This document shows, one piece after another, positions 22,364-46,408 of a stretch of DNA of 64,000 bases. The position numbers were made by a program, and so were the translations under genes. Source of the stretch: a virus (taxonomy: Duplodnaviria; Heunggongvirae; Uroviricota; Caudoviricetes); IMG/VR virus record IMGVR_UViG_3300031555_005217, positions 71,047 to 135,046 of that record; one strand, given 5' to 3'. Below the pieces are notes generated by a model that searched no databases, was not told the DNA's origin, and saw only the letters and a program-made list of their open reading frames with translations. The stretch's first letter is position 1. Each line of letters starts with the position of its first letter.

Positions 22364-22437
22364 TGGAGCATCCGACCGGATTCGAACCAGTGATCAGAGG
22401 GTTGCGGCCTCCTGCCTTACCGCTTGGCTACGGACGC
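22364..22437 (-). tRNA. tRNA-Cys(GCA)
   Basis: Cloverleaf folded by hand. Acceptor GCGTCCG/CGGATGC, T-loop TTCGAAT, anticodon loop CCGCAAC (C33 is unusual), CCA encoded. Confidence 0.6.
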
Positions 22438-22445
22438 AAATTATA

Positions 22446-22520
22446 TGGCAGTTCCTACAAGATTCGAACTCGTAATATCAGGTCCGTAGCCTGAGGGTTT
22501 ATCCATTAGCCTAAGGAACT
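22446..22520 (-). tRNA. tRNA-Arg(ACG)
   Basis: Anticodon arm TCAGG-CTACGGA-CCTGA, T-loop TTCGAAT. Confidence 0.7.
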
Positions 22521-22524
22521 GTTT

Positions 22525-22610
22525 GGTACCGAAGGTGGGACTCGAACCCACACGTCTATAAGACACCAGTTTCTAAGACTGGCGTGTCTACCTATTCCAC
22601 CACTTCGGCA
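22525..22610 (-). tRNA. tRNA-Leu(UAG), type II
   Basis: Anticodon arm CCAGT-CTTAGAA-ACTGG, long variable arm, A73. Confidence 0.65.
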
Positions 22611-22615
22611 TATTG

Positions 22616-22692
22616 TGGTGGAAATGGGTGGAATCGAACCACCGACCTCAGACTTATCAGGTCTGCGCTCTAACCAACTGAGCTACATTTCC
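22616..22692 (-). tRNA. tRNA-Ile(GAU)
   Basis: D-arm GCTCAGTTGGTTAGAGC, anticodon loop CTGATAA. Confidence 0.75.
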
Positions 22693-22697
22693 AGTTA

Positions 22698-22775
22698 TGG
22701 TCGGAGCAGTCCGATTCGAACGGACGATCTCGTGGTCCCAAACCACGCGGAGTAACCAAACTATCCTATGCTCCG
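22698..22775 (-). tRNA. tRNA-Pro(UGG)
   Basis: Anticodon arm CGTGG-TTTGGGA-CCACG. Confidence 0.7.
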
Positions 22776-22916
22776 AAATTATACTATAATATCTAATTCT
22801 TGAATTTTGGAATAAATTAATAAAATTAAGTCTTCAAAATCAAAATAATCATAATCAAATTTTACTTCAATATCACGTGTTGTAAATTTATCTAATAAAC
22901 ATTGGTTATCAGTATC

Positions 22917-23126
22917 CTATTCTTGTTCAGCGTAGGTACAATCAAGTGTTACATACGGTTCTGAATTAAAAAATTCTATTTTCATAGAGTTAATACAAAA
23001 TCAACTTCTTGGAGAAATTAATTCTTTAACCATTGCATCTACGGCATCAACAATATTATTAATTTCATTATTAATAAGCGTAAATGGATGATTTTGTAAT
23101 GCTAATTTAGATTTCTTTCTATACAT
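22917..23126 (-). CDS. small hypothetical protein inside the tRNA array, with in-frame TGA
   Basis: Hand translation MYRKKSKLALQNHPFTLINN...SPRS-[TGA]-FCINSMKIEFF..., stop TAG. Confidence 0.3.
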
Positions 23127-23149
23127 ATTAATTTATTCCTTTCAATTAA

Positions 23150-23236
23150 TGGCGGAGAGCTAGGGACTCGAACCCTAAAGGCTTTTACACCTGGCGGTTT
23201 TCAAGACCGCTCGACTACCAATTATCACAGCTCTCC
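23150..23236 (-). tRNA. tRNA-Ser(UGA), type II
   Basis: Anticodon arm GCGGT-CTTGAAA-ACCGC, long variable arm, G73. Confidence 0.7.
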
Positions 23237-23244
23237 AATTTAAA

Positions 23245-23265
23245 GTATACCTAATAATTAGGTAT
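23245..23265. repeat. perfect 21-nt palindrome tatacctaat-a-attaggtata
   Basis: Seen directly in the sequence, between tRNA-Ser and tRNA-Thr. Confidence 0.6.
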
Positions 23266-23332
23266 AGAAGTTGCCAACCTTCATTCCTCATCTGTCTAAT
23301 GACTATTTTGTCAAGAGCTTGGCGGACCTTCT

Positions 23333-23408
23333 TGGTGCCGGAAGAGAGATTCGAACTCCCAACCTTCTCATTACAAGTGAGTAGCTCTACCGTTGGAGCT
23401 ATTCCGGC
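23333..23408 (-). tRNA. tRNA-Thr(UGU)
   Basis: Anticodon arm ACTCA-CTTGTAA-TGAGA. Confidence 0.7.
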
Positions 23409-23414
23409 ATTCAT

Positions 23415-23490
23415 TGGGGTGAGGTAAGGGAATTGAACCCTTATTGCAAGAGCCACAATCTTACGTCCTAACCGTTGAACGAACCTCACC
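23415..23490 (-). tRNA. tRNA-His(GUG) with encoded G-1
   Basis: Anticodon loop TTGTGGC, an extra 5' G pairing with C73. Confidence 0.7.
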
Positions 23491-23495
23491 ATATT

Positions 23496-23571
23496 TGGTG
23501 GAGGATGACGGGTTCGAACCGCCGACCCCTTGCTTGTAAGGCAAGTGCTCTCCCAGCTGAGCTAATCCTCC
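23496..23571 (-). tRNA. tRNA-Val(UAC)
   Basis: Anticodon arm CTTGC-CTTACAA-GCAAG. Confidence 0.75.
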
Positions 23572-23828
23572 AAATAGAATAAAATTAAATATATCTTAAG
23601 AGTGTAACATCCTTTGATGTCATGAGAACTTATTACTACATACTGAAGTTATGCATCACTACAATATATAGTTGATATATATGTTCTTTAAGTCAACCTT
23701 ATACTATACTATCACTATTTAAATACCTCTATACAGAGGATCAAGTGATCACTCAATAAAGCCAACTTAACTACAGCGGATTCAGCTAGCTAGTCTGCCC
23801 TGTAGACTTTTACTTTTATTTTAATTTT

Positions 23829-24058
23829 AATCTAAGTCATCTATAACTTTTTTTAAATCATTAAATAAAGTATTTCAAACAATTTTTCTATTCTTATTCT
23901 TATCTGGTTTACTATGAGCAACAGGTCCCTTGTATCTTAGATAATCATAATCAAAATAACTTCCATAATTTTCACCTCATGTATTCTGAAGATAAAAATT
24001 ATTTTTCATAAAAGCTTTTAACTTTCTAAATACTTTTTCTTTTTCTGCTCTCGTCATA
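23829..24058 (-). CDS. small hypothetical protein inside the tRNA array, with in-frame TGA
   Basis: Hand translation MTRAEKEKVFRKLKAFMKNNFYLQNT-[TGA]-GENYGSYFDY... Confidence 0.3.
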
Positions 24059-24082
24059 ATGTAATTTCCTATTTATCTTTAT

Positions 24083-24160
24083 TGGCAGGGGTGGCAGGAT
24101 TCGAACCTACGAAATGTCTGAGTCAAAGTCAGATGTGTTAAGCCGCTTCACCACACCCCT
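24083..24160 (-). tRNA. tRNA-Gln(UUG)
   Basis: Anticodon arm TCTGA-CTTTGAC-TCAGA. Confidence 0.7.
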
Positions 24161-24170
24161 ATTTGCTAAA

Positions 24171-24255
24171 TGGTGGGTGAGGCTGGACTTGAACCAGCAA
24201 TGCCGTTGGCGCCTGATTTACAGTCAGGTGGGGTTACCAATTTTCCTACTCACCC
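24171..24255 (-). tRNA. tRNA-Tyr(GUA), type II
   Basis: Anticodon arm CCTGA-CTGTAAA-TCAGG, long variable arm, A73. Confidence 0.7.
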
Positions 24256-24284
24256 ATTTATGGAGCAGGTGATGTAACTACCTG

Positions 24285-24992
24285 CTATAATTTCTTATCA
24301 TATAACTTATCTAAGTTATTTGTGTTTCTATTTATAAAAACAGGATACTTAGAAGTTATATAATTGAATATTTCGATTAAATCATCATAATGATATAATC
24401 TATAATTGACATTAAGTTTATTCATTGCTGCTACTTTTTCATATACAGGTCCTAAATCTCGTCCCTTTAATTCCACGTAGGTATTAGTTTCAGGTAAATA
24501 GAAATCTGGGTAATATTTATAGGTCTTACCTTTATATTCATAATCAAAAGACTTCTTATTTCTCTCTATCAATATATTATTATCTAAACAATATATTAAA
24601 AAAGCTAGTTCATAAGTTGAATCACATCTGAATCCTTTATATATTCCTTTTTTACCATAAGGTGTGGTATGATTAGGCCCACCAAGATTATGTTCTTTAG
24701 CAGAAATACTGAGTAATTGTCTCTTGCAGTCATCTGAACACGATTTAGATCTTCTTCTAGAGTAGGGAAGTATTGAATTACAGACCAAACAAAATTTAGG
24801 ATTATCTAAATAGATAGCTATCTTATTTTGTAATTTTTCTGAATAGGTATTATTCACGGTCTTACTTCTTTTTAGATTAATCTCTACTGTTTGTTTCCTA
24901 GAGTTGGAACATTTTCGTGAACAGAATTTTCCTGAACCAAATTTGACAAATACTTCTTTGTTACATTTTAAACATTTATATAAATAATTCAT
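24285..24992 (-). CDS. zinc-ribbon + PD-(D/E)xK-like nuclease, copy 1 (homing-endonuclease-like, embedded in the tRNA array)
   Basis: CLKCNKEVFVKFGSGKFCSRKC, then ...YKYYPDFYLPETNTYVELKG (PD...ExK). Start set at MNYLYK with SD ggag. The track N-terminus overlaps a tRNA. Confidence 0.45.
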   Translation of the reverse strand: MNYLYKCLKCNKEVFVKFGSGKFCSRKCSNSRKQTVEINLKRSKTVNNTYSEKLQNKIAIYLDNPKFCLVCNSILPYSRRRSKSCSDDCKRQLLSISAKEHNLGGPNHTTPYGKKGIYKGFRCDSTYELAFLIYCLDNNILIERNKKSFDYEYKGKTYKYYPDFYLPETNTYVELKGRDLGPVYEKVAAMNKLNVNYRLYHYDDLIEIFNYITSKYPVFINRNTNNLDKLYDKKL

Positions 24993-25058
24993 TATATCAT
25001 CTCCATATAATTTAGCGTAAAAATCGAACTGTTTTAAACTACTTGATGATATAATATA

Positions 25059-25132
25059 TGGAGCAGCATACCGGTGCTGCCCCGGTGCCGTCTGCTTGGA
25101 AGGCAGAGGTTCTACTGTTAAACTAATGCTGC
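25059..25132 (-). tRNA. tRNA-Gly(UCC)-like with non-canonical GC-rich T-loop (GGCAGCA); possibly a pseudo- or atypical tRNA
   Basis: Hand fold: acceptor GCAGCAT/ATGCTGC, D-arm GTTT-AACAGTA-GAAC, anticodon arm TCTGC-CTTCCAA-GCAGA, T-arm ACCGG-GGCAGCA-CCGGT, CCA encoded. Confidence 0.4.
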
Positions 25133-25180
25133 ATATAATTAGATGTGGTTCTACCATTGTCCTACACCTGCATATTAATT

Positions 25181-25256
25181 TGGCACACCCTCCAAGACTC
25201 GAACTCGGATCGTAGGCTTAGAAGGCCTATGTTCTATCCAGTTGAACTAAGGATGT
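25181..25256 (-). tRNA. tRNA-Arg(UCU)
   Basis: Anticodon arm TAGGC-CTTCTAA-GCCTA. Confidence 0.7.
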
Positions 25257-25259
25257 ATA

Positions 25260-25335
25260 TGGTGGAACCTCTTGGATTCGAACCAAGATCCGTGGTTCTT
25301 CAGACCACTGCATAGACCAACTTTGCTAAAGCTCC
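25260..25335 (-). tRNA. tRNA-Phe(GAA)
   Basis: Anticodon arm GTGGT-CTGAAGA-ACCAC. Confidence 0.7.
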
Positions 25336-25340
25336 GTTTA

Positions 25341-25415
25341 TGGCGGGAAATAATGGACTTGAACCATTATCTATCGGTTAACAGCCGATTGTTCTGACCT
25401 TTGAACTAATAACCC
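25341..25415 (-). tRNA. tRNA-Asn(GUU) (two U-U mismatches in the acceptor stem)
   Basis: Anticodon arm ATCGG-CTGTTAA-CCGAT, D-arm GTTC-AAAGGTCA-GAAC. Confidence 0.6.
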
Positions 25416-25430
25416 ATATTTTAAAATTAA

Positions 25431-26100
25431 TATTACTTGCAAGAAATAGTAAATGGCCACTTCCTATAAGAATCAAGTAATGTTATATAAACAAGAATAT
25501 CGTGCTTATACCTAGAACACAGTTCCTTATTCTTTTTTAAAAAGACCGATTGTCTCCGCCTAACCACACCATACGGTGCCTTCAATGGCATAGCAAAATG
25601 CTATCCAAAATTTTACATCCTTGCTTAAATAGGTGAAAGAATCCCTCGCCACAAAGTAAGGCGAACAAACGGCTTTGTCTAATTAATAGTAAAAATAACC
25701 TATTGTTAAATCCAAATCAATTATCATCCGATGATGTCTAGTTTGACAATAAACTAGGGAGACTTTTGCAAGTATACTTGGAACCAAGCAGGGAGATGCC
25801 ATAGTGCTTAATTTGTCATTTTGTCAAGTTCAACCACATTTTACCGACTACCACGCAAGGCTCCGGAACTCGCATCCTTCCGCTACGGCTATTCCTATAA
25901 CTCGAATAGTTTTAGACTTTGTTATTATAACCTTTGTCTTTGTTCTCAATAGAGACTCACTAATAAGCTAAACTTATTATCCATAACCCCCGCTTTCGCA
26001 GTATTATGACCTTTGATCTTGTCGTCTTTAAGACGTGCGCTAATAAATATTCATTTATTATCCGTAGAATCCGTTCTCACACAACTACGTCTTTTTTTAT
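25431..26100 (-). ncRNA. large structured non-coding element, copy A (core about 25600-25940), homologous to copy B
   Basis: About 670 nt with no ORF in any frame and locally GC-enriched. The core 25619-25741 and 25833-25935 aligns with 28978-29100 and 29221-29300, with conserved stems (cgcc..ggcg) and variable inserted hairpins. Strand assumed from the flanking tRNAs. Confidence 0.5.
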
Positions 26101-26102
26101 TT

Positions 26103-26189
26103 TGGTGCCCGAAAAGAGATTTGAACTCTTATGCTATTAAGCGCAAGTGCCTAAAACTTGTGTGTCTACCGAAATTTCACCATTCGGGC
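26103..26189 (-). tRNA. tRNA-Leu(UAG) second copy, type II
   Basis: Anticodon arm CAAGT-TTTAGGC-ACTTG, long variable arm. Confidence 0.6.
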
Positions 26190-26194
26190 AATTA

Positions 26195-26281
26195 TGGTCG
26201 CTAGAAAGGGATTTGAACCCTTAATCCTGTAAAGGCGACGGATTTTAAGTCCGTTATGTATGCCAATTCCATCATCTAGCG
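26195..26281 (-). tRNA. tRNA-Leu(UAA), type II
   Basis: Anticodon arm ACGGA-CTTAAAA-TCCGT, long variable arm. Confidence 0.7.
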
Positions 26282-26290
26282 TTATTTAAT

Positions 26291-26367
26291 TGGTGGACTA
26301 GATAGGACTTGAACCTATGACCTACTGATTAACAGTCAGTCGCTCTAACCAACTGAGCTAATGCCCC
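26291..26367 (-). tRNA. tRNA-Asn(GUU)-like; acceptor stem pairs poorly (possible pseudo- or chimeric tRNA)
   Basis: Canonical D-arm GCTCAGTTGGTTAGAGC, anticodon arm ACTGA-CTGTTAA-TCAGT and T-arm, but 5' GGGGCAT faces 3' CTAGTCC. Confidence 0.35.
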
Positions 26368-26396
26368 ATAATGGTGTTATTTAAACACCTATATAA

Positions 26397-27284
26397 CTAT
26401 TCATATAACTGAATAAAATCTTTACCATATTTTTCAATAACATAATCTAAATATGGTTTAATTTCAGTGTAAGTTATTACTTTTATTGGATATTTGAATT
26501 GTTCTATCTTTGCTTTTCATTTATCAGAAGAATAACCCTTAATTTCTACATATTTACCATCTTCTATAAAATCTGGGAAATATTTTAAAGTCTCATCCTT
26601 AAAAGTATACTCAAATCCTTGTTTGTTTCTAATAAAAGGAATATTATGTTCAAGATTATATATTACATATGCTAATTCTCAAGAACTATCACAATAATAA
26701 CCTTTATATCAACCATGTTTACCTAAACCTGAACCTTTTCTATAACCTCCAGGAGTTTTTACTTTAATACTTTTTCCATAATCTGTATGATAAAGACAAT
26801 AAGAACATAATCCTGTTTTTGTATAGTTTCCAATTAATTTTCCACATTCTTTACAGAAAGATACTTTTTTGGATTTTTTGATTTCAATATTATAATCTGA
26901 CTCAATAACTGATTTACGTATCTTCTCTTTTACTTCTTCAGATCTTTCTCTTGAATTAGCACAAGATCTAGAACAGAATCTACCTGATCCAAATTTTTCA
27001 GTCATAACTTTTCCACATTTTTCACATGTGTGTTGTTCTGAGATTCATTCTTGAATCTTACTTTTATTAACTTCAATAAGTTCTAATTTTTTATTTTCTC
27101 TATTCTTATTACATTGGTCTATTAAGTTAGTTCTACGTTCATCTAATTTGATAGTATTTCCATATTTAGCTAACATATGAATTTTACAATGACCTTTATG
27201 TCCATTAAAACTTTGTGAATTATAGAATTTTTTACCACATTCACATAAATAAATATTCTCATAATTAAATGTATTCATAAACAT
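26397..27284 (-). CDS. zinc-ribbon + PD-(D/E)xK-like nuclease, copy 2; a single gene spanning three track ORFs via in-frame TGA codons
   Basis: Hand translation joins 27045..27284, 26709..27005 and the 26400-26708 segment in one frame: ...KIQE-[TGA]-ISEQHTCEKCGKVMTEKFGSGRFCSRSC...KHG-[TGA]-YKGYYCDSS-[TGA]-ELAYVIY...YFPDFIEDGKYVEIKG...; paralogous to 24285..24992. Confidence 0.5.
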
Positions 27285-27314
27285 TCTCCTTTTTATCTTA
27301 CATTTAATTTAGTA

Positions 27315-27352
27315 CAATATTTGGTTTCGGATTTAAGAATTGAACCTATTAA
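27315..27352 (-). other. tRNA 3'-half remnant (T-arm AATAGG-TTCAATT-CTTA plus acceptor 3' strand plus CCA) with no 5' partner
   Basis: Seen directly in the sequence, immediately downstream of the tRNA-Glu-like gene. Confidence 0.35.
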
Positions 27353-27427
27353 ATTAAAATGGTGACGGCTAAGGGTTCCGCCCCCTCCATCCTGGAGTGA
27401 AAGTCCGGTGTGTTCACTAGTTCACCA
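27353..27427 (-). tRNA. tRNA-Glu(UUC)-like with non-canonical GC-rich T-loop (GGCGGAA)
   Basis: Hand fold: acceptor GGCGGCT/AGCCGTC, D-arm GTG-AACTAGTGAA-CAC, anticodon arm CCGGA-CTTTCAC-TCCAG (one C-A mismatch), T-arm GAGGG-GGCGGAA-CCCTT, CCA encoded. Confidence 0.4.
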
Positions 27428-27451
27428 AGCCGCCAAAATAATAAAACTGTC

Positions 27452-27526
27452 TTTAAACTGGTGCTCTAACTTGGAATCGAACCAAGGACTAGACATTACC
27501 ATTGTCTTGTTTTACCTACTAAACTA
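27452..27526 (-). tRNA. tRNA-Thr(GGU)
   Basis: Anticodon arm AGACA-ATGGTAA-TGTCT, T-loop TTCGATT. Confidence 0.6.
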
Positions 27527-27718
27527 AGAGAGCATTCTAAGCTTTTAAGCTTGATTATTAATATTAGATAAAAATACTAACATCATTAAATTTGCAAGAG
27601 ATTTTAAAAATTTAAACATAATGAAAACTCACTCCTCTCTATAAAATAAATTAAAGAGTACGTTGTTTTAAGTTTTCATTTCTGTACATAAATTATGTGT
27701 CACCTCTTATAATATTTT

Positions 27719-27794
27719 TGGATGCGGAGGACGGACTCGAACCGTCGACCTTCGGGTTATGAGCCCGAAAAGCTACCACTGCTACACTCCGCAA
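27719..27794 (-). tRNA. tRNA-Met(CAU), initiator-like (three G-C pairs closing the anticodon stem, weak 1:72 pair)
   Basis: Anticodon arm TCGGG-CTCATAA-CCCGA, U1-A72. Confidence 0.6.
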
Positions 27795-27877
27795 TATATC
27801 CATTTTGAGTTTTTATGAGGTCAAAAGGTTTACTAATGTAAAACACCTCAATTTCATTTCTTAGTAAAAATTTTACC

Positions 27878-28090
27878 TTATGCTAATACTCTACTGATGA
27901 CGAATCTTGTAGTTTCATTAAACTTATATTCAATTACATGTTTTTCTCTAGCATATTCATCTTGTAGATATGCAAATGCATTAAGTTTGCTACACATATA
28001 GTTAAATGCTTGTTCTCTTGTTGCAAACTTCTTTCTTGTAGAATAAGGTACTGAGTTAATAACTCCTTGTAATTTATAATATTTTTTCAT
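27878..28090 (-). CDS. small basic hypothetical protein
   Basis: Track ORF trimmed to MKKYYKLQG, which has a strong SD ggaggcagataaag. Confidence 0.45.
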   Translation of the reverse strand: MKKYYKLQGVINSVPYSTRKKFATREQAFNYMCSKLNAFAYLQDEYAREKHVIEYKFNETTRFVISRVLA

Positions 28091-28165
28091 CTTTATCTGC
28101 CTCCATAATTTATAGTTTATAATGGTCATTTCGGACCAAGACAATAAAGATATTTAACATCACTA

Positions 28166-28241
28166 TGGTGGAACTAGTCGGGATCGAACCGACGGCCTTC
28201 TGCGTGCAAAACAGACGCTCTCCCAGCTGAGCTATAGCCCC
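28166..28241 (-). tRNA. tRNA-Ala(UGC) with G3-U70
   Basis: Anticodon arm TCTGT-TTTGCAC-GCAGA. The acceptor stem carries the G3-U70 wobble that is the Ala identity element. Confidence 0.7.
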
Positions 28242-28250
28242 ATTTATTTT

Positions 28251-28338
28251 TGGTACCTCGGGCCGGAGTCGAACCGGCACGCCTTTAAGGGGCATGGGAT
28301 TTTAAGTCCCACGTGTCTACCTATTCCACCACCGAGGC
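28251..28338 (-). tRNA. tRNA-Leu(UAA) second copy, type II
   Basis: Anticodon arm TGGGA-CTTAAAA-TCCCA, long variable arm. Confidence 0.65.
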
Positions 28339-28343
28339 ATTTA

Positions 28344-28418
28344 TGGTGTGTCCGCTGGGACTTGAACCCAGGACCTCCTGATTAAAAGTCAGGTGCTCTA
28401 CCACTGAGCTACGGACAC
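28344..28418 (-). tRNA. tRNA-Lys(UUU)
   Basis: Anticodon arm CCTGA-CTTTTAA-TCAGG. Confidence 0.75.
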
Positions 28419-28421
28419 ATA

Positions 28422-28498
28422 TGGCGGTCTGAACGGGACTTGAACCCGCGATCTCCAGTGTGACAGACTGATATGTTAACCAACTACACCACCAGACC
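28422..28498 (-). tRNA. tRNA-Asp(GUC)
   Basis: Anticodon arm TCAGT-CTGTCAC-ACTGG. Confidence 0.75.
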
Positions 28499-28499
28499 A

Positions 28500-29760
28500 T
28501 TTCAAGGAACATTATAGATCCAATCTAAAACGTTCCAGTAATCTCCTTCTACCATATGTAGATGAGTTAATTATAACTGAACTCGCTATTTACGAATTCG
28601 GGACTCTTTCTACGTTCGTAGATGAGTATAACAAAATTATTTTGTCTTTGCTAAATAAATATATACCTTGCTTGTGGTGAAGGTACCAACGCCTCGGTGA
28701 ACGGACGATTCTCATTTTATTTCAATGAATCAGTTGATCAGACCGATATAATCAAGACCGATACTATAACCAGAAAAGTCTTTCGGAATAACCCGTAACT
28801 TAATGCGCATTACCCTGCTTACTCTTTCCTAATGCTAGCTTTTAGTACTTAAATTCTTTTCAACAAGCCTTTGTATTTTCTTTAACTTTGTCTTTTTGCT
28901 TAATCTGCTTTCAGGGTAAGCGCCCGTCGTACTTTTTGGCCTTCAGGTATACGAAATTTACCTGTTTACTTCTACAGCTTGCTTAAATAGGTGAAGCACT
29001 CATACGCCACAGGAGTAAGGCGATCCAAACGGCTTTATTTAATTAATGGTAGATATAACCTATTGTTAAATCTAAATTAATTATCATCCGATGAGGTCTA
29101 GTTAAATTCATTTTAATTCACATATAAACACTCTTGTTTATACTTCCTAAGGCATTTTTGGCTAAAATATGCTAACCTCTTATAATTAAACCAATTTTAA
29201 TTATAAGTGAACCTAACATCACCCACATTTTACCGACTTTACGGCTATTCCTTTACCTCGAATAGTTTTAGGAATCCTGTCATTATAACCTTGTTTGGAA
29301 TAATACCAAAATCTCTACCGATTTCGATGTTATTGTTACAACTTTCGTTGCCGAGCTAATCTAATTTCAGCATATCAACCTAATATTCAAAATTAAGTGA
29401 CGACATTATTAGGTTATCGCTATTCAGTCTACGTAAGACCTTTCACCCTTTATCAATTTTTCTTTCGAGTAAAAATGATAAAACTCTTGTGACAATTTCT
29501 GCCCTCACTACATAAATATATTATGCATCCTATGTCACCGGTCTCCCACTACATAGCCTTTATAATTGCTAGTTATCTCAATTAAGAGACTCTTTATTTA
29601 AGATTTAGTCTTCGGTAGGTTCATCATTACTAGCACTGTGAATTCTACCACCAAGGTTTGAACAATTAGTTTGCTAATCGGTTCTCCACTTCTTAGTTGG
29701 AAATCCGCCTCGCCAGCAGCACCACCACGAGCAGGTTTGTTCTTGGTGCCATATAATATA
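28500..29760 (-). ncRNA. large structured non-coding element, copy B (about 1.25 kb; core 28978-29300 homologous to copy A)
   Basis: No ORF of 60 aa or more in any frame across 1.26 kb and locally GC-enriched. Blocks gcttgcttaaataggtgaa..cgccaca..agtaaggcga..aaacggcttt, ccgatga.gtctag and cattttaccgact..acggctattcct.ta.ctcgaatagtttta are shared with copy A. Confidence 0.5.
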
Positions 29761-29769
29761 CAATATTTT

Positions 29770-29801
29770 TAAATAAAAAAGGACGGCATCTTAAGCCATC
29801 C
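29770..29801 (-). terminator. rho-independent terminator (stem GGATGG/CCGTCC then T-run on minus strand)
   Basis: ggacggcatcttaagccatcc preceded on the plus strand by aaaaaa. Confidence 0.55.
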
Positions 29802-29829
29802 TTAAATTTATTTTTAAGTTTGGTTAAGA

Positions 29830-29942
29830 TTTAAGTAAATATAAAATTTCAAAATAATATTCTTGTTCAGGACAATCATACGCAGAGATGGTAGATGTAT
29901 AGTTAAATTTATTAATTTGTTTATTAAGATTAACAACTAATA
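29830..29942 (-). CDS. small hypothetical protein
   Basis: ATG at 29942 with SD ggagaatg. About 37 codons, which is below the track threshold. Confidence 0.25.
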
Positions 29943-30110
29943 ACTTTTTCATAATCAATACATTCTCCTTACTTTAAAATTTTATTCAATATAATTTAGC
30001 GTTTCGAAATCAAACAATTTATTAAAAAACGTCGTCTTAATTCCATACAGGTCTATTAAGATCTTTTGTTTATTTGTCCCATTCATTAAGGTTAACGTCG
30101 TTTTATTTAA

Positions 30111-30206
30111 TGGCAGGGGCTACAGGATTCGAACCCGTACCCACGGCTTTGGAGACCGTTACCCCAGTTTTGAAGACTGGTGTGCTAACCGTTACACTAA
30201 GCCCCT
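30111..30206 (-). tRNA. tRNA with anticodon UCA (predicted UGA decoder / suppressor), 96 nt, type II long variable arm, G73
   Basis: Hand fold: acceptor AGGGGCT/AGCCCCT, D-arm GTGT-AACGGTTA-GCAC, anticodon arm CCAGT-CTTCAAA-ACTGG, 25-nt variable arm with internal ACGG/CCGT stem, T-arm ACGGG-TTCGAAT-CCTGT, G73, CCA encoded. Confidence 0.7.
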
Positions 30207-31499: not shown

Positions 31500-32498
31500 T
31501 TATTTAATCATTCCGCCTATCACTGCAGATAATGAATCACTAGTTAATACCTCAGGTAACTTACCATCCCAAGTATCATAGAAAATAATTGATAATACTA
31601 AATCTGCTGATTCTGTATAAGTCATTCCAGTATTTTCTTGAACTGTGGTAATCATTTCATTAATTCTATCTACATAAGCTGTTGCAGCATCTGCATTAGC
31701 TTCACCTTCAACTTTTACTGCATAAGCGGCTGCATCTGCTAATGTCTTATCTACTAATGCTTGCTGTTCTGCTACTTTAACTTGATTTTCAGCGGTAATT
31801 AAATTTGCTTCTGCTTCTTTACGAGCAATTTCAATCTTTTGTTCAGCTTCTGCTTTTTGTTGTAAGATAGTTTCAATATTTGCACTTGCTTCTACATCAT
31901 CAAATGAAGCACTAACTAAAGTAACATAATAATTACTTATCAAACTATTAGATAATGTATTTTGAAAATCTACCCTAGCAATCTCTAAACCTTCACTTAA
32001 TAGTTCAAAAATATCATATTTGATAGTACAAGATTGTAAGGATTGCTTAACTAAGTTACTTAATTGATCTTCATTTAAATTAACACTATTTGTTTGCTTA
32101 TAGAATTTACCTGCATTGTCTTTTTCAACTTTATAAATAATAAAGATTTGAAATGTTCCATATTGACCATCATTTGTTTGGCCTGCAGTTGTAAATATTG
32201 CTGTTCTATTTGCTGTTGAAATAGGTGTTACATGCCAGAAGATAGATTTAGTTCTGAAACCTTCATCCAATGTTTCTTCTAGTACACCTGATCTATCATC
32301 ATAGATGATACCTACTTCATTAGCTCCTACTTGAACAAAAGCACCAAATAATAAAATTAAAAATGCTAGAGGTGTTGCTAATAAACTTAAGAAACTAAGT
32401 TTACTCCATTCATTTTCATATATGTTATATCCACATACTCCAATAACTAATAATACCAAAATTACAAATACTACAATACTAATAATTAAAACTGTCAT
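31500..32498 (-). CDS. SPFH / band-7 (prohibitin, HflK/C-like) membrane protein
   Basis: N-terminal TM helices, SPFH-like core, C-terminal A/E/K-rich coiled coil. Confidence 0.55.
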   Translation of the reverse strand: MTVLIISIVVFVILVLLVIGVCGYNIYENEWSKLSFLSLLATPLAFLILLFGAFVQVGANEVGIIYDDRSGVLEETLDEGFRTKSIFWHVTPISTANRTAIFTTAGQTNDGQYGTFQIFIIYKVEKDNAGKFYKQTNSVNLNEDQLSNLVKQSLQSCTIKYDIFELLSEGLEIARVDFQNTLSNSLISNYYVTLVSASFDDVEASANIETILQQKAEAEQKIEIARKEAEANLITAENQVKVAEQQALVDKTLADAAAYAVKVEGEANADAATAYVDRINEMITTVQENTGMTYTESADLVLSIIFYDTWDGKLPEVLTSDSLSAVIGGMIK

Positions 32499-32518: not shown

Positions 32519-33457
32519 TTATAAATTTAAAACATATTTAATATAATTATCTGAATATGATTTTAATACCTTAAAATTAATTGTTGGTTGATGGAATTTC
32601 TTTAAAATTATTTCCCAGTTATCTCTAAAGAATTCATTAAATGTTCTATTTAATAATTCAAAGATATATTTAGATGACCATATTCCACCCTTATCTTCAA
32701 TTAATTTATGATACTCTTTTTGAATATGTTCTACTGTCATTAAATTAATTATTGCATGTTCAATTGGATTTTCATCTTTTTCAACTTTATTTTCATGTCT
32801 TAGCTTACCTTTTGATTTTCTAAAATCCTCAGTTAAAACTTTCGCCCATTTAATATGGCCTCATCTGTTTCGATAATCATAATTTTTAATTACAATTCCT
32901 TCACCTGTTCCTTCAGTGATTAAGAATTCTCCGGTCTTATCTAAATAAGATTGAATTTCTTCCTCTGTTGGATTTTCTAATTTTGCAATTAATGGAATAA
33001 TATTAACTTCAGGATATTGTTTCATTTCCTCTCTCCATATATCATAGTTAATATATTTTTCATTTTCAACATCATATACATCAAATAGATATAATTTTTT
33101 CCAAGCATCTTGACCATATCTCTTTATAGTATGTGGAATTAACCACTCACCATATAGAATATAATTAGGATGTTTGCTTAAATAATTATGTAATTGTTGA
33201 TATAATTGGTTAGGAATTTTAAGTCCTGTAACTTCATTGGTATCCAACTGACATAAAGTTTCCATAAATTTACCATTATCATCTTCTAAAGATAATTCTC
33301 TTTTTCTAGATCCAAAGCCTAATAGATTATCATCTCTTAACCATACACAAGCATTTGTTCCATCGATTTTGTAAGTTAAATAACAAGTTCCATTTAGGAT
33401 TCCTTCTACCTCACTTGTTCCAAGTTTTTCAATGTGCATATATTTCTTGAATTCCAT
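32519..33457 (-). CDS. RNA ligase (Rnl-family nucleotidyltransferase); one gene spanning two track ORFs via TGA
   Basis: Motif I YKIDGTNA and motif IV GEGIVIK. ORFs 32861..33457 and 32519..32740 are in the same frame, joined by DYRNR-[TGA]-GHIKWAKVL.... The stop is TAA. Confidence 0.6.
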
Positions 33458-36358: not shown

Positions 36359-39300
36359 TTATGCTAACGTACACACTTTTGCTATATGGTTACAACCACT
36401 AATAAAACCAGTTTCAAAGTTAATAGTAGGATTATCGTATGTATATCCAGTAAATATATTTGATGTCTTATTGGAATATGTTACATTGACTATATAAGAA
36501 ATAGCGTTACTTGCTAAAGTCCAAATATCAATAGTTGCTGAACCATTGCCTGTAGTACCTTGACCAACAACTACATATCTTCCATTTCCATAGGTACTAG
36601 ATAAAGCGGCAATATCTAACACACCATCTGAGAATACTTTTGAAATATCTATTGTAGGGTTAATCTCCGAAGCAATCTTACTTGATGACCAAGTAGAATA
36701 AGTATTTCCAGTTGATGAATCATTAATATTTCCATATTCAGTAATTGCTGTATATTCTGCTGCTTCATACTCTGCCTGTGATGATGCTACAAAATCTGCA
36801 CTAGTATAAATTTTACTATACTTATCTATTTGTTGAGTTTTTGGGCGAATTATCATAGTATTAAAGGGAGTTGCTTTGTAAATAAATAAATCTACTTGAT
36901 AATGTCCACTACCTGTAAGTGATTTAAAATTTCCTCATTTTACGGAAATAGTGCTTTGAGGATTACCTCTTAAACCAATATTTTTTACGATACATGAAGA
37001 AGCAGAATCACTATTACTATATACGGAAATAATACTCTCATATCCTAAAACATTAACTGAAAATGTTGTTTCTCTTCCATAATACAAATCTACTGTAAGT
37101 TTTCTGTATCTACTATCAGTAAAATATATTTCATTAAATGGAGTAGCGCCTTGAACTCGTTTTTCCACTGTTGCAAGAGTATTTTTAGAAGCAAATGCAC
37201 TTTCAGGTATTAAAGTCATCTCACTCTTGTCAGCAGGTAAGGCTGTAACCATTTCAGGTCGGGTAATTGCGCCACTCACTTTAATAGTACACCATTGTCT
37301 AATTTCAAGATAATAACAACCATTAGTAGGATAGTAATACAAACGTTGAATCTTATAATTAGGATCAATTCCATCATACAGAGTATAATCTGTTGCACTA
37401 TATGTGGTCCAATCACCATAACTATATCTAACCAATTTAACAGATTTATATGTACCGTCATCAGCCATACCAGTAATTTCAACTTTTCCTCCATATTGGT
37501 CGGTAATTGTAATAGGTTGGAATTTTGTAACATTACCTAATGTTAATTTAAGCCATTGTGTAGCACTTGCCGTACCAAATGTGTACACACCATACTTCGC
37601 ATCAATCTTAGAAGAAGAATATGTAGAAGTAGTCGATACTATCTCATCTGAAATAACACTATCTAAAATTTCTTTAGGAACTGATTTTGTTATTTCTGTT
37701 CCAGTATAAGTTTCACTGCTAGATAAAGCAGGAATATCTCCGTGAACTGGAATAATTGATGCATATCAAATTTGATCAGTTACTGTTGGAATTATATATA
37801 AATCACAATTGTCGATATATTTACTAAAAGATCTTTCCCCTTGTAATTGTTGAACTCTACATCTTGCTTCAGTACCAGCACCGTAATTAGTAATTAAGAA
37901 AGTACCATATCCTGTTCCTATAGTTGTTCTGACAGATAAAATTGCTGTAGTTAACTTATTAGGTAATAAACTTACTTTTAAATACTGACCACTTTCTATA
38001 GTTGTTGTTGATTTTAATTCTACTTTTTTAGCAAAATCATTATTAATTTCATCAGCAGTAAGATATTTTTCTAAAGTTTTATTTAATCCTTTTAATTCAA
38101 CATCAATTTTAACAACTGAAGGATCAAGAACTTCTCATCCACTTCCTGTCCAATAGTAATAAACATTTTCTGTTTCACTAAGTAAAAGAATACAGTCATC
38201 AGGTTTTAAAACACTAACATCTGGTAAAGTATCACTCTCTGTATAAACTCCAATAAAATGACATTCTTTATCGGAAGTAAGACTGTTATCTAAATTATCT
38301 AACTTAGTTTTATATTCTTCAGTGAAGTTATTATCAGTGTGAACATAATTTTTATCTATAACAAGACCTTCTGGCTCTGTATAATTTTCAAGTCCCGCTA
38401 ACTTTTCTTTCTCTGCTGTCGTAAAGTCATTTGTTGATAACCCTTTTCCTTCTACCTTATTTACTTTATTTCCAAGAGAGACTTTAATTTCGCTATCATC
38501 ATAATTGTTTAGATTTGCTAATTTTTCTTTCTCTGCTGTCGTAAAGTCATTTGTTGATAACCCTTTTCCTTCTACTTTATCAACTTTATTTCCAAGAGAG
38601 ACTTTAATTTCGCTATCATCATAATTGTTTAGATTTGCTAATTTTTCTTTCTCTGCTGTCGTAAAGTCATTTGTTGATAACCCTTTTCCTTCTACCTTAT
38701 TTACTTTATTATCTATTTCAACTTGTAAATCAGAAGCATCAAAATTATTTAATCCAGCTAATTTTAACTTTTCTTCATCTGTAAAATCATTAGTAGAAAG
38801 ACCTTTTCCTTCAATCTTATCTACTTTATTCGATAAATTTGTGTTTAGCGCCGCGATCTCAGTTAAAGCGGCATCATAACTTCCTACTTTTGAAGCATTA
38901 ATTCCACTATTAACAGCTTCTAATTGAGTTTGAGTTAAAGTATTTTGTTTTGTATCTAACTCTTCTTTGCTGGCTAAATGAGTTAAGTCAACCATACCAC
39001 CTAATTTATCCCATTGACTACCATCTCAAGCATAATTATCTCCAGTATCTAGTACATTATATACATCACCTATTGTTTGATCAGCAGAAGGTAAACTGTC
39101 ATAAGAATCAACGGTTCCTCTATATTTATAAGAAGTTGATGTTTTTGCATCTACTTCAGCTTTAGTGTAAACATCTGCTTTATTAGCTTTTAAATCAAGA
39201 GATAAGTCTGTTTCAGTTTTAGTATAATGATTTACGGCTTGCGCAGCGATTTGATTGTCAACATAATCTTTAGTAGCTTTATCTTCTAAATTTGCACTTG

Positions 39301-40060
39301 TAAGAAAATCGCTATCATTTGTTAATTGAGAAGTTTTTGTAGGAATATTATCTACTTTATTTTTATACTCATTAGTAAAATCATTTGTAGATAATCCTTT
39401 TCCATTAACTTTATCTACTTTATTTTCTAAAGTTGTTTCAATTCCTGTTGCATCGAAATTGCTTAAATTAGATAATTTAAGTTTTTCTTCATCAGTAAAG
39501 TCATTACTAGATAAACCTTTACCATCAATTTTTTCTACCTTATTATTTAATGCATTTTGAATTGCAGTATCATCAAAGTTATTTAAGTTAGATAACTTAT
39601 TTTTTTCTTCAGAAGTGAAATTATTATCAGTATGAACATAGGTTTCATCAACTACTATATTTTCCGGTAATTTCTCTAAAGTTGCAAGTTTCTCCTTTTC
39701 TGCTGTAGTAAAATCTTCTGTACTTAGCCCTTTTCCAATGACTTTATCTACTTTATTTTCTAAAGATTCTTTGACTTCTGTATCATCATAATTTTCTAAA
39801 GATGCTAATTTTGTTTGGGTTTCATTCTTGAAGTTTTCATAATTAATATCTTTTACTACTGTATTAGGTAAGACATATTTATTAGCACCTTCTTCAATAC
39901 CATTTAATTTATTAGCTTGATCTTCTGTAAAAGTATTTTCAGGGATAGTATATATAATTCCATCAACACTTAAACTAGTTAATTCTGATTCATTTCCTGT
40001 TGTGCTTGGATTAACTATTACTTTTGTATCTCCGCTTAATTTTCTAAAAGTATAAGCCAT
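36359..40060 (-). CDS. giant tail fibre / receptor-binding protein (about 1230 aa) with tandem 40-aa repeats; one gene spanning four track ORFs
   Basis: ORFs 39026..40060, 38135..38995, 36935..37588 and 36359..36856 are in the same frame and are joined only by TGA codons (...GDNYA-[TGA]-DGSQWDKLGGMVDL..., ...YYYWTGSG-[TGA]-DEVLDPS...). KVDKVEGKGLSTNDFTTAEKEKLANLNNYD repeats. Confidence 0.65.
38400..38720. repeat. about 120-bp DNA tandem repeat, roughly 2.7 copies, inside the tail-fibre gene
   Basis: Near-identical units beginning ttttctttctctgctgtcgtaaagtcatttgttgataaccc... at about 38403, 38523 and 38643. Confidence 0.7.
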
Positions 40061-45100: not shown

Positions 45101-45110
45101 AATATACAAT
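45101..45110 (-). promoter_or_regulatory. class-1 promoter-like motif
   Basis: aatatacaat upstream of 44833..45081. Confidence 0.35.
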
Positions 45111-46408
45111 TATTCAGCTGCTTTGAAATTATATATAGGTTTAATTATCTTTGTAATTTCAACAGTATCACCAATAGCATTAATTATTTCTTCCATAGGT
45201 TTATAAGCCATAGGTGCTTCATCTAATGTACTTTCATTTGCAGTAGTGGTAAAGATATTAGACATTTCATTTTGGAAATCTTCTACTTTTAATACCTCTT
45301 TAGCTTTCATTCTTGACATAATACGACCAGCACCATGAGGAGCTGAATAGTTCCAATCTTCATTTCCTTTTCCTATTCCAATAATACAACCATCTCTCAT
45401 GTTCATAGGAATAATTACATTCTTACCTTTATGAGCTGATATAGCACCTTTTCTAACCATATCTTCATCATCAATGTAGTTATGAACAGATTCAAAATAG
45501 GTAAGGTTAGCAACACCATCAGTAGTAGGAATTGAATCTCTTACATCTAGGTTATAATATTTAATTTGTTTACCTTTGTAATATATAAACCTATCAAGAA
45601 TCTTTCTTGCTATAGAATATCTATTTTCCTGTGCAAATTGTTGACAGATTCTCATATCATGTAGATAATCCTCTCTATCCTCACCTTCCAAGTAACATAA
45701 GTCTTTAGGTAATTTTGTTAACCCATTATATTTATCATATAAGGCTTTTAAGGCATTTTCAATTTCTTTCTCTCTACCTTGTTCTTTATATTCTTTTAAA
45801 ATAGCTAATCTTTCACTATTTAATTCTTCTTTATAAGAACAATGTTCAATAGCTATTTGTTGGTAAATATCTGCAACTTGTTTACCTAAGTTACGTGAAC
45901 CAGTATGAATAACTAAATATAAATTATCCTCATCATCTTTATCAATTTCAATAAAGTGATTTCCACCACCTAATGTACCCAGACTAGATCTTAAGTGTTC
46001 TTTATTCTTTAAATATCTATAACAATATAATTTTTGTAAATATGTTCTTTCTACATATTCTTCAGATAAAGATATATCATTAGGGAATATTCTCTTATCA
46101 CTATAATCATTAACTTCAAAACCATTAGGAATGTTGTTTTTAATGAAATTATCTAACTCAAATAAATTAAGATCAATCTTACCTAAATTAACACATAACA
46201 TTCCACAGCCTATATCAACACCTACAATATTAGGGATTACTTTTTTACCTAGATTACCTGTAAAGCCAATTACACAACCCATACCGGCATGAACATCAGG
46301 CATTATTCTAACCTTACAATCTTTAAAGGCTTCTTGTTGTAAAAGAGTGTTAATTTCTTCCATTGCTTTTTCTTCTATGTTATTAGTAAATATTTTTAAA
46401 TCAGACAT
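45110..46408 (-). CDS. rtcB: RtcB RNA-splicing ligase (3'-phosphate/5'-OH ligase)
   Basis: MPDVHAGMGCVIGF, GGNHFIEI, HGAGR. Confidence 0.85.
   Translation of the reverse strand: MSDLKIFTNNIEEKAMEEINTLLQQEAFKDCKVRIMPDVHAGMGCVIGFTGNLGKKVIPNIVGVDIGCGMLCVNLGKIDLNLFELDNFIKNNIPNGFEVNDYSDKRIFPNDISLSEEYVERTYLQKLYCYRYLKNKEHLRSSLGTLGGGNHFIEIDKDDEDNLYLVIHTGSRNLGKQVADIYQQIAIEHCSYKEELNSERLAILKEYKEQGREKEIENALKALYDKYNGLTKLPKDLCYLEGEDREDYLHDMRICQQFAQENRYSIARKILDRFIYYKGKQIKYYNLDVRDSIPTTDGVANLTYFESVHNYIDDEDMVRKGAISAHKGKNVIIPMNMRDGCIIGIGKGNEDWNYSAPHGAGRIMSRMKAKEVLKVEDFQNEMSNIFTTTANESTLDEAPMAYKPMEEIINAIGDTVEITKIIKPIYNFKAAE

Follow-up and report, generated by a model that had tools for sequence, protein, structure and literature searches.

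Paralogous elements in the tRNA array of a TGA-recoded phage: probable genes for a rare, previously undescribed family of large structured RNAs

What occupies the two long gene-poor gaps in the transfer RNA (tRNA) array of a large metagenomic phage? The question arises from a stretch of 64,000 nucleotides (nt), hereafter the window, which covers positions 71,047 to 135,046 of the IMG/VR record IMGVR_UViG_3300031555_005217 (Caudoviricetes) and is part of the 191.6-kb JGI metagenome contig Ga0307249_10001168. A first reading of the window, made from the letters alone (the sequence-only reading), had noticed two homologous regions poor in open reading frames (ORFs) within the array, and both are indeed found there: region A (687 nt) and region B (about 1252 nt), which are 100% identical in several related samples carrying the same sequence. 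At a probability of roughly 0.6, we consider A and B to be paralogues that encode a rare family of large, structured non-coding RNAs, not described before, in a phage that reads TGA as sense, transcribed with the tRNA operon and processed to their ends. The array itself comprises 26 tRNA genes (22364-30206, minus strand) and encloses both regions, laid out as follows.

25416-26102, minus strand: RNA A, the 687-nt paralogue, which fills the gap between two tRNAs exactly
28499 to about 29750, minus strand: RNA B, about 1252 nt, with its predicted 5' end at G1 of a ribozyme fold (see below) and its 3' end abutting tRNA-Asp
29779-29803, minus strand: strong intrinsic terminator hairpin directly upstream of B, seen in a terminator scan as nine pairs followed by a T-run

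A is flanked by tRNA-Leu(tag) (26103-26189) on its 5' side and by tRNA-Asn (25341-25415) on its 3' side, and B by the terminator hairpin (29803-29779) upstream and by tRNA-Asp (28422-28498) downstream. Between the terminator and B lies an AT-rich stretch with -10-like hexamers (TATATT/TATTAT). Through homologues of the ThyX-like protein, a related phage contig of 208 kb (L153) was reached, in which the terminator is kept and which carries the single divergent orthologue of B, here B2, in a gene-free 1.26 kb (L153 11540-12797). The order of elements is the same in both phages: RNA ligase, ThyX-like, DUF6275, tRNA(tca), an ORF of 42 amino acids (aa), the RNA and tRNA-Asp.

We find no conserved coding sequence in either region. 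Their G+C content (0.32-0.41 in A, 0.29-0.40 in B) exceeds that of the neighbouring ORFs (0.23-0.28), as had been noticed at first sight, and their longest ORF under code 11 spans at most about 55 aa. The description in the sequence-only reading, of regions lacking ORFs in all six frames, is borne out: just short ORFs are present, none of them conserved. It had also named proteins under an alternative genetic code as what could overturn it, and code 4 yields no conserved ORF in A or B: both hold just short stop-to-stop stretches, whose lengths differ between B and B2, and the stem substitutions between B and B2 would be non-synonymous in every open frame. As for the strand, the minus strand of A folds at -172 kcal/mol (z -4.3) and its plus strand at -135.5 kcal/mol (z -2.6); for B, the minus strand reaches -315.8 and the plus strand -267.4 kcal/mol, so that the minus strands have an advantage of 36-48 kcal/mol. 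Since this better folding is joined by many G.U pairs, the functional strand is the minus strand, so that the sense strand of A and B is that of all tRNAs and genes. These results also bear on whether A and B could instead be a DNA-level element (replication origin, packaging or recombination site) or encode small proteins under an altered code, as the presence of AT-rich repeats and hairpins and the reading of TGA as sense might suggest. We regard this as most improbable: the many conserved G.U pairs, and the transitions preserving them, work in a minus-strand RNA only, the minus strand is the one that folds better, and the code-4 open stretches are short, not conserved in length and altered in their amino acids by the substitutions in stems.

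Is there a common structure behind the two regions? A and B share a core, which the sequence-only reading had put at about 320 nt of conserved blocks and which measures about 315 nt; its parts are listed here.

25620-25934, minus strand: core of A, the blocks shared with B
28978-29292, minus strand: core of B, the blocks shared with A
within 29292-28978, minus strand: block 1 of the B core, AGGUUAUAAU
29265-29245 in B and 25909-25889 in A, minus strand: hairpin Pa
29244-29233 in B and 25888-25844 in A, minus strand: stem Pb (CCG/CGG), in A with a 34-nt extension of its own (25883-25850)
following Pb, minus strand: junction of the B core, UAAAAUGUGGGUGAUG
29216-29104 in B (113 nt) and 25827-25744 in A (about 85 nt), minus strand: variable domain between blocks 3 and 4
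29103-28978 in B and 25743-25620 in A, minus strand: block 4, with the long hairpin H3 and the hairpin H4
25730-25670 and 25664-25646, minus strand: H3 and H4 of A, respectively
25724-25734, 29084-29094 and about 12395-12405 of L153, minus strand: quasi-palindrome UCAUCGGAUGA, 11 nt, invariant in all three cores
GGGUGAUG/CUUCACCU: putative closing helix of the core
25919-26066, minus strand: tandem duplication in the 5' flank of A, each unit measuring about 65 nt (a pair of hairpins, then CAAAGGUYAUAAUA), with 49 of 65 positions identical

The blocks are collinear and 82-95% identical between A and B, with start-to-start spacings of 3356-3389 nt; the largest one reaches E = 3e-35 in blastn, which detects no third copy of the core in the window. 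Between the blocks, the sequences of A and B are not alignable, and the hairpin-sized segment that had been reported from copy A alone corresponds to the 34-nt extension inside the CCG...CGG stem. Core block 1 of A is provided by the second unit of its 5' duplication. H3 (19 pairs) is recovered in the independent minimum-energy fold of each copy; 96% of its cells pair across A, B and B2, and four transitions are absorbed as G.U pairs that are workable on the minus strand only. Pa, which reads CUAUUC/GAAUAG in A and B and GACAAU/AUUGUC in B2, lies in all three sequences 14-16 nt past block 1 and directly before the CCG stem, while H4 shows a swap from G-C to C-G. Variation in length is limited to the tips of stems. 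In addition, several single-stranded stretches of the core are invariant, i.e., UAAAAUGUGG, ACUAGAC, the quasi-palindrome and CUUCACCU..UUAAGCAAG. Because its loop would measure 1 nt, the quasi-palindrome is unable to form a hairpin; judging from its letters, it could pair between molecules (5+5 base pairs, bp), whether A-A, B-B or A-B, and by our own estimate about 0.3 such palindromes are expected per core by chance. It is the one hint at a homo-oligomeric, RNA-only assembly (nanocage) of the ROOL and GOLLD kind.

How far conservation extends beyond the core can be read from B2, which matches B as follows.

5' 218 nt of B against B2: 77% identity
core blocks of B against B2: 83-97% identity
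3' 200 nt of B against B2: 89% identity
29563-29650, minus strand: hairpin domain of B behind the ribozyme fold (GGUAGAAUUCA...UGAACCUACC and two small hairpins)
29440-29570, minus strand: module M of B, three hairpins (17 pairs against B2, one compensatory, one wobble, none broken)
28499-28704, minus strand: 3' tail of B, 89% identical to B2
28628-28604 and 28567-28544, minus strand: twin near-identical hairpins CUCAUCUAC...GUAGAARGAG in the tail of B

Since B2 matches the 5' domain, the core and the tail, B is conserved as a whole, beyond the part that it shares with A, and this even though the variable domain is down to 17 nt in B2. Altogether, 112 pairs were predicted in the B/B2 comparison, of which eight are double compensatory, two are wobble-compatible and none is broken. 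In the 5' domain, all 36 pairs are intact, with six double changes, against 28-51% of paired cells and zero to one double change in controls where the partners were slid by 1-3 columns. The main hairpin behind the ribozyme fold has two compensatory pairs and none broken, and its loop might form a pseudoknot (UGCUAG/CUAGCA, located by eye, with invariant bases). In B2, module M directly precedes the core, and one of its hairpins is shortened to a GAAA tetraloop. The 3' tail contributes 59 pairs (one compensatory, one wobble, none broken), its remaining six substitutions falling in loops and junctions, and its terminal hairpin stops 7 nt before tRNA-Asp. The twin tail hairpins, each with an internal loop, are the same base for base in L153 except for one loop base and look like a repeated binding site, although a putative one. 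The compensatory changes against B2 support the view, already expressed in the sequence-only reading, that A and B are structured non-coding RNA elements, neither coding nor junk DNA. To what that reading contained, our analysis adds the minus strand, the conservation of B over its whole length, genetic code 4 and the HDV-like fold at the 5' end of B. As a separate observation, positions 28690-28720 of the B tail degenerately repeat the 3' end of the core (28978-29040), with the order CCGUU..GGCG..CUUCACC..AAGCAAGG, and the same holds in B2, which suggests a partial internal duplication within B-type RNAs.

What, then, defines the 5' end of B? Its first 91 nt look like a self-cleaving ribozyme fold of the hepatitis delta virus (HDV) type, composed of the elements below (all on the minus strand).

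29660-29750: HDV-like self-cleaving ribozyme fold, first 91 nt of B
29750-29745 / 29723-29718: P1, GGCACC/GGUGCU, 6 bp, first pair G1.U, one double change (C-G to U-A)
29742-29737 / 29665-29660: candidate P2, GAACAA/UUGUUC, invariant between B and B2
29736-29734 / 29726-29724: P3, 3 bp, one double change
29733-29727: L3, 7 nt, U-N-N-N-C-G-N
29732-29731 with 29717-29716: P1.1, both pairs double-changed (GC/GC to CU/AG)
also part of the fold: P4 hairpin, 30-44 nt, which folds in B and B2 from different sequences
directly 5' of the P2 3' strand: J4/2, CUAA, conserved, with the candidate catalytic C at 29669

P1, P2, P3/L3, P1.1, P4 and the C of J4/2 are the defining parts of the HDV-like family (PMC8495972; PMC10879173). 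The Rfam model RF02682 (HDV-F-prausnitzii) gave sub-threshold scores, 12.1 bits in the case of B and 23.2 bits in that of B2 (E=0.01, search space of 136 nt). As this model leaves P2 and P1.1 unscored, the full HDV-like structure was mapped onto the B/B2 alignment, where all 17 pairs of P1, P2, P3 and P1.1 hold in both sequences, with four double changes. P3/L3 reads ACC-UGCUCGU-GGU in B and GCC-UCUACGC-GGC in B2, so that L3 has the HDV-like form including the trans G.U bases; G29750 (G1) is preceded by U, and G1, the -1 base and P1 are as in HDV-like ribozymes. For B2, L3/P3 is CCUCUACGCGG against the RF02682 consensus CCUCUaCGUGG, and GGCUAA is identical to the consensus. A generic HDV descriptor comprising all elements matched the window on both strands at 29750 only, a single site in 128 kb (0.05 matches in shuffled windows), and L153 at 11540 plus one AT-rich, chance-like match; having been written after the sequence was seen, the descriptor is supportive, not independent. 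The predicted cleavage site lies about 30 nt past the terminator, beside the -10-like hexamers, and about 360 nt from the nearest upstream tRNA, which ends at 30111, with an ORF and the terminator in between.

The fold of B resembles drz-Fpra-type and theta ribozymes in G1, a 6-bp P1, a 3-bp P3, a 7-nt L3, a 2-bp P1.1 and a J4/2 starting with C, and its layout would be a nested double pseudoknot. The host phage, a recoded gut-type phage with a PF09414 RNA ligase, recalls the setting of the theta ribozymes as well, and an ORF whose annotation reads "RNA ligase, DRB0094 family" is reported to be 140-fold enriched in phages with HDV-like ribozymes (PMC10879173). The differences are that the scores of B and B2 for the drz-Fpra-type model RF02682 lie under its cut-off, that P4 is full-sized (30-44 nt) instead of minimal, and that the predicted cleavage site, far from lying 5 nt or less from the 3' end of a tRNA, starts a 1.25-kb non-coding RNA. 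A comparable arrangement is that of the R2 retrotransposon, in which, according to PMC3774820, a 5' HDV-like ribozyme frees a long RNA from its upstream co-transcript and stays in the product. B likewise has a 5'-terminal HDV-like fold on a long RNA, but R2 is eukaryotic and protein-coding, whereas the RNA downstream in B is non-coding and followed by tRNAs.

The same anatomy feeds the main rival of our reading, i.e., that A and B are purely cis-acting leaders or spacers of the operon, which would organise expression of the tRNA array, insulate it from read-through by means of the ribozyme, and stabilise the precursor or guide its processing through hairpins, with no role in trans. Indeed, B stands between a terminator and the first tRNA of its run and A between tRNAs, HDV-like theta ribozymes of gut phages have been proposed to act in tRNA maturation (PMC10879173), and the ribozyme fold is supported by the sub-threshold RF02682 match and the B/B2 pairs. 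Yet, a simple spacer needs no 315-nt core kept at 82-95% in paralogues and an orthologue while its flanks are randomised, related phages have tRNA clusters without such an element, and the ribozyme is not beside a tRNA 3' end, unlike in the theta arrangement. A cis-acting role is a serious possibility, though one to which we would give well under even odds.

Do A and B belong to a family that is already known? Rfam 15 was used on the window, A, B and B2, once with its gathering scores and once at E<=10, the filters being permissive for the 0.7-1.3-kb inputs A, B and B2, and returned only tRNAs and noise, save for the sub-threshold HDV match. In A, B and B2, the comparison that the sequence-only reading had proposed gave no match at E<=10 to GOLLD (RF01998), ROOL (RF03087), group I and II introns, RNase P or transfer-messenger RNA (tmRNA), nor to the 6S and HEARO/omega RNA models, and ARAGORN called no tmRNA. 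Blastn with A and B found nothing in GenBank phages. Pattern scans, which required exact patterns of 16-36 nt and are insensitive, recovered no core homologue in IMG/VR (patterns drawn from blocks 2, 3, 4 and the 5' domain; chance matches in coding DNA only), seven chance matches in JGI metagenome contigs (a collection without the source contig itself) and chance matches only in GTDB genomes. Neighbouring genes led no further: homologues of the Band_7 protein lie in unrelated phages or bacterial chromosomes without the RNA in synteny, those of the RNA ligase in IMG/VR have no tRNA array within reach, those of the array endonucleases do occur within tRNA clusters elsewhere in phages, yet the RNA is missing there, and three other ThyX-like homologues sit on phage contigs without a syntenic tRNA array. 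Finally, when 0.4 Mb of examined loci were scanned with a covariance model of H3, nothing came up except the three copies on which it had been trained. On these searches, the family appears to be new to Rfam 15 and to the collections covered, and rare, with three copies in two phages. Several candidate identities were also weighed by eye and dropped: an RNase P P4-like pairing of AAAGUCGG, which is not conserved in A or B2; a tmRNA, there being no pairing of tRNA-like ends and no ARAGORN match; a T-box GGUGGUA motif, for lack of a model match; a small ORF from a conserved AUGUGG, of which the peptides diverge past six residues and end differently; and a pairing of a loop with block 4, the register of which gave no compensation.

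ROOL and GOLLD are the known RNAs that come nearest in their genomic niche and overall build, and the tRNA-cluster setting that had been likened to theirs does match published descriptions (PMC5737381; PMC12286853). Discovered in metagenomes from the rumen, ROOL is a large and structured RNA that phages and prophages carry, in many cases next to tRNA islands, with which it is probably co-transcribed; in it, conserved helices surround a poorly conserved linker (PMC5737381; PMC12286853); its covariance model is defined by sequence, six junctions and three pseudoknots. GOLLD exceeds 800 nt, occurs in phages near tRNAs, which sometimes lie within or adjoin it, combines conserved and variable parts, and rises in expression during phage lysis (PMC12286853); its model includes a universally conserved 3' region. 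A and B resemble both in being carried by phage DNA inside a 26-tRNA array. They differ from ROOL in lacking a match at E<=10, in having a 315-nt core inside RNAs of 687 and 1252 nt, and in the HDV-like 5' fold of B, no ribozyme being reported for ROOL; they differ from GOLLD in lacking a model match and in the sequences of their blocks, B being moreover longer and provided with the 5' fold. The sequence-only reading had hesitated between an undescribed class and divergent GOLLD/ROOL; the former half is supported, no known family having been matched, and the latter is not. A place for A and B within GOLLD or ROOL, as highly divergent members, is very doubtful, for although setting, phage host, large size and a variable linker between conserved regions are shared (PMC5737381; PMC12286853), neither RF01998 nor RF03087 matches A, B or B2 at E<=10, even with permissive filters.

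Another conceivable origin would be the decay of a mobile element, A and B then being remnants of an ORF-less group I or II intron or of a homing-endonuclease-associated RNA, duplicated by endonuclease activity. The array does contain two paralogous endonuclease-like ORFs, with homologues in the tRNA clusters of other phages. Nevertheless, no intron, HEARO or omega-RNA model matches, no gene is interrupted by A or B (because the flanking tRNAs are intact), the endonuclease homologues occur elsewhere without the RNA, and purifying selection with compensatory changes speaks against decay, so that we hold this origin for highly unlikely.

Returning to an undescribed RNA family, a number of observations weigh against it. 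Both RF02682 scores are under the gathering threshold of 44 bits, and the 3' strand of P2 could instead pair over 8 bp with another partner, AGCAAUUA, which is invariant as well. H3 shows no double compensatory change and one of its pairs fails in two sequences, Pa is offset by 1-2 columns in B2, and H4 of B2 is one pair short. The two internal modules are ordered differently in B and B2, so that B could be a string of separate elements instead of a single RNA. With just three sequences from two related phages, few events underlie the covariation, and these numbers do not allow statistics of the R-scape type; besides, most structures were predicted on the same alignments that served for the pair counts. 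To this must be added that the family was found in none of IMG/VR, the JGI contigs, GTDB and the GenBank phages by the insensitive exact-pattern scans and blastn.

Because only three copies are available, we infer the mechanism (transcription, cleavage and tRNA-linked trimming) from the anatomy of the locus. A and B would be transcribed on the minus strand within the tRNA operon and would owe their defined ends to RNA processing, not to dedicated terminators. At the 5' end of B, the HDV-like ribozyme would cleave just before G29750, leaving a 5'-OH and remaining attached, and would thereby trim read-through or slightly longer primary transcripts, while the 3' end would result from an RNase P cut at tRNA-Asp. 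For A, release would depend on processing of the tRNA-Leu 3' end on one side and on an RNase P cut at tRNA-Asn on the other. The working module would be the core of about 315 nt, i.e., Pa, Pb, H3, H4 and the invariant single-stranded blocks, built around two sites at which insertions or deletions the size of a hairpin are tolerated, and the product would be a trans-acting, abundant and stable RNA particle serving the phage during tRNA expression. We favour such a particle by analogy with ROOL and GOLLD, since the insertion-tolerant sites are like their peripheral stems and linker (PMC12286853). More speculatively, and with rather little confidence, A and B might make up a class of ornate phage RNA in its own right, the third after GOLLD and ROOL and independent of both. 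Such an RNA, up to 1.25 kb long, would generate its own ends (by the ribozyme on the 5' side and by tRNA punctuation on the 3' side) and would assemble through its invariant core, possibly via UCAUCGGAUGA, into a higher-order particle; the latter would act on the machinery of translation or of the tRNAs while the TGA-recoded phage switches the code.

To our knowledge, large ornate RNAs are very rare outside ribosomal RNA, introns and RNase P. GOLLD and ROOL, the two phage examples, form RNA-only cages. If an unrelated family did occupy the same niche, phages would have evolved giant RNAs linked to tRNA islands more than once, and such repeated evolution would argue for a function that is general, open to selection and linked to the expression of tRNAs. 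A 5' end defined by a ribozyme would be an unreported feature for large phage RNAs of tRNA islands; it gives a 5' end that can be checked experimentally and hints at what "isolated" HDV-like ribozymes may do in gut phages. Moreover, with two paralogues of different size and one core, the 687-nt A RNA offers a natural minimal construct for structural work.

The phage itself is AT-rich (G+C of 26.8%), with all genes on the minus strand, and its replication proteins share no more than about 34% identity with those of cultured Bacillota phages. It reads TGA as sense (genetic code 4): the total length of long ORFs rises from 15.5k to 19.4k aa under this code, which fuses fragments, e.g., into a 1233-aa tail-fibre-like gene (36359-40060, minus strand). 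The genes closest to the subject of this study are the following.

30111-30206, minus strand: tRNA with anticodon UCA, 96 nt, called tRNA-SeC by ARAGORN, just upstream of B
32519-33457, minus strand: RNA ligase, PF09414 (RNA_ligase family)
45110-46408, minus strand: RtcB (Pfam E=6e-62)
26397-27284 and 24285-24990, minus strand: two paralogous Cys-rich endonuclease-like ORFs in the tRNA array

The tRNA with the UCA anticodon is kept at the same place in L153 (11094-11191). Since the second endonuclease-like ORF, listed as 24285-25157, overlaps the tRNA at 25062-25132, its true start is probably near 24990. Some homologues of these ORFs carry Pfam Phage_endo_I, and other large phages (L145, L149-L151) have homologues inside small tRNA clusters; the two ORFs probably encode homing endonucleases, by which tRNA arrays would be remodelled. 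The Band_7/SPFH protein (31500-32498, minus strand) has its closest homologue (P0002, 71%) on a phage-like contig and many closer homologues (55-71% identity) in bacterial chromosomes, where they adjoin Thg1 or metabolic genes, some of the metagenome-assembled genomes being labelled Anaeroplasmataceae or Bacillales; this distribution suggests acquisition from a host and hints at the host group.

Regarding assembly, independent assemblies (L016-L022) break at or inside B, at the equivalents of window positions of about 29755, 29190 and 28350, which fits with the A/B repeat and the tRNA repeats misleading assemblers. Three tRNA-like genes on the minus strand (26294-26367, 25062-25132 and 27363-27434) match the Rfam tRNA model, the last one with just 32.9 bits, and are missed by ARAGORN. 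Finally, the tail-fibre-like gene contains many tandem repeats of about 35 aa (..NKVDKVEGKGLSTNDFTxxEKxKL..).

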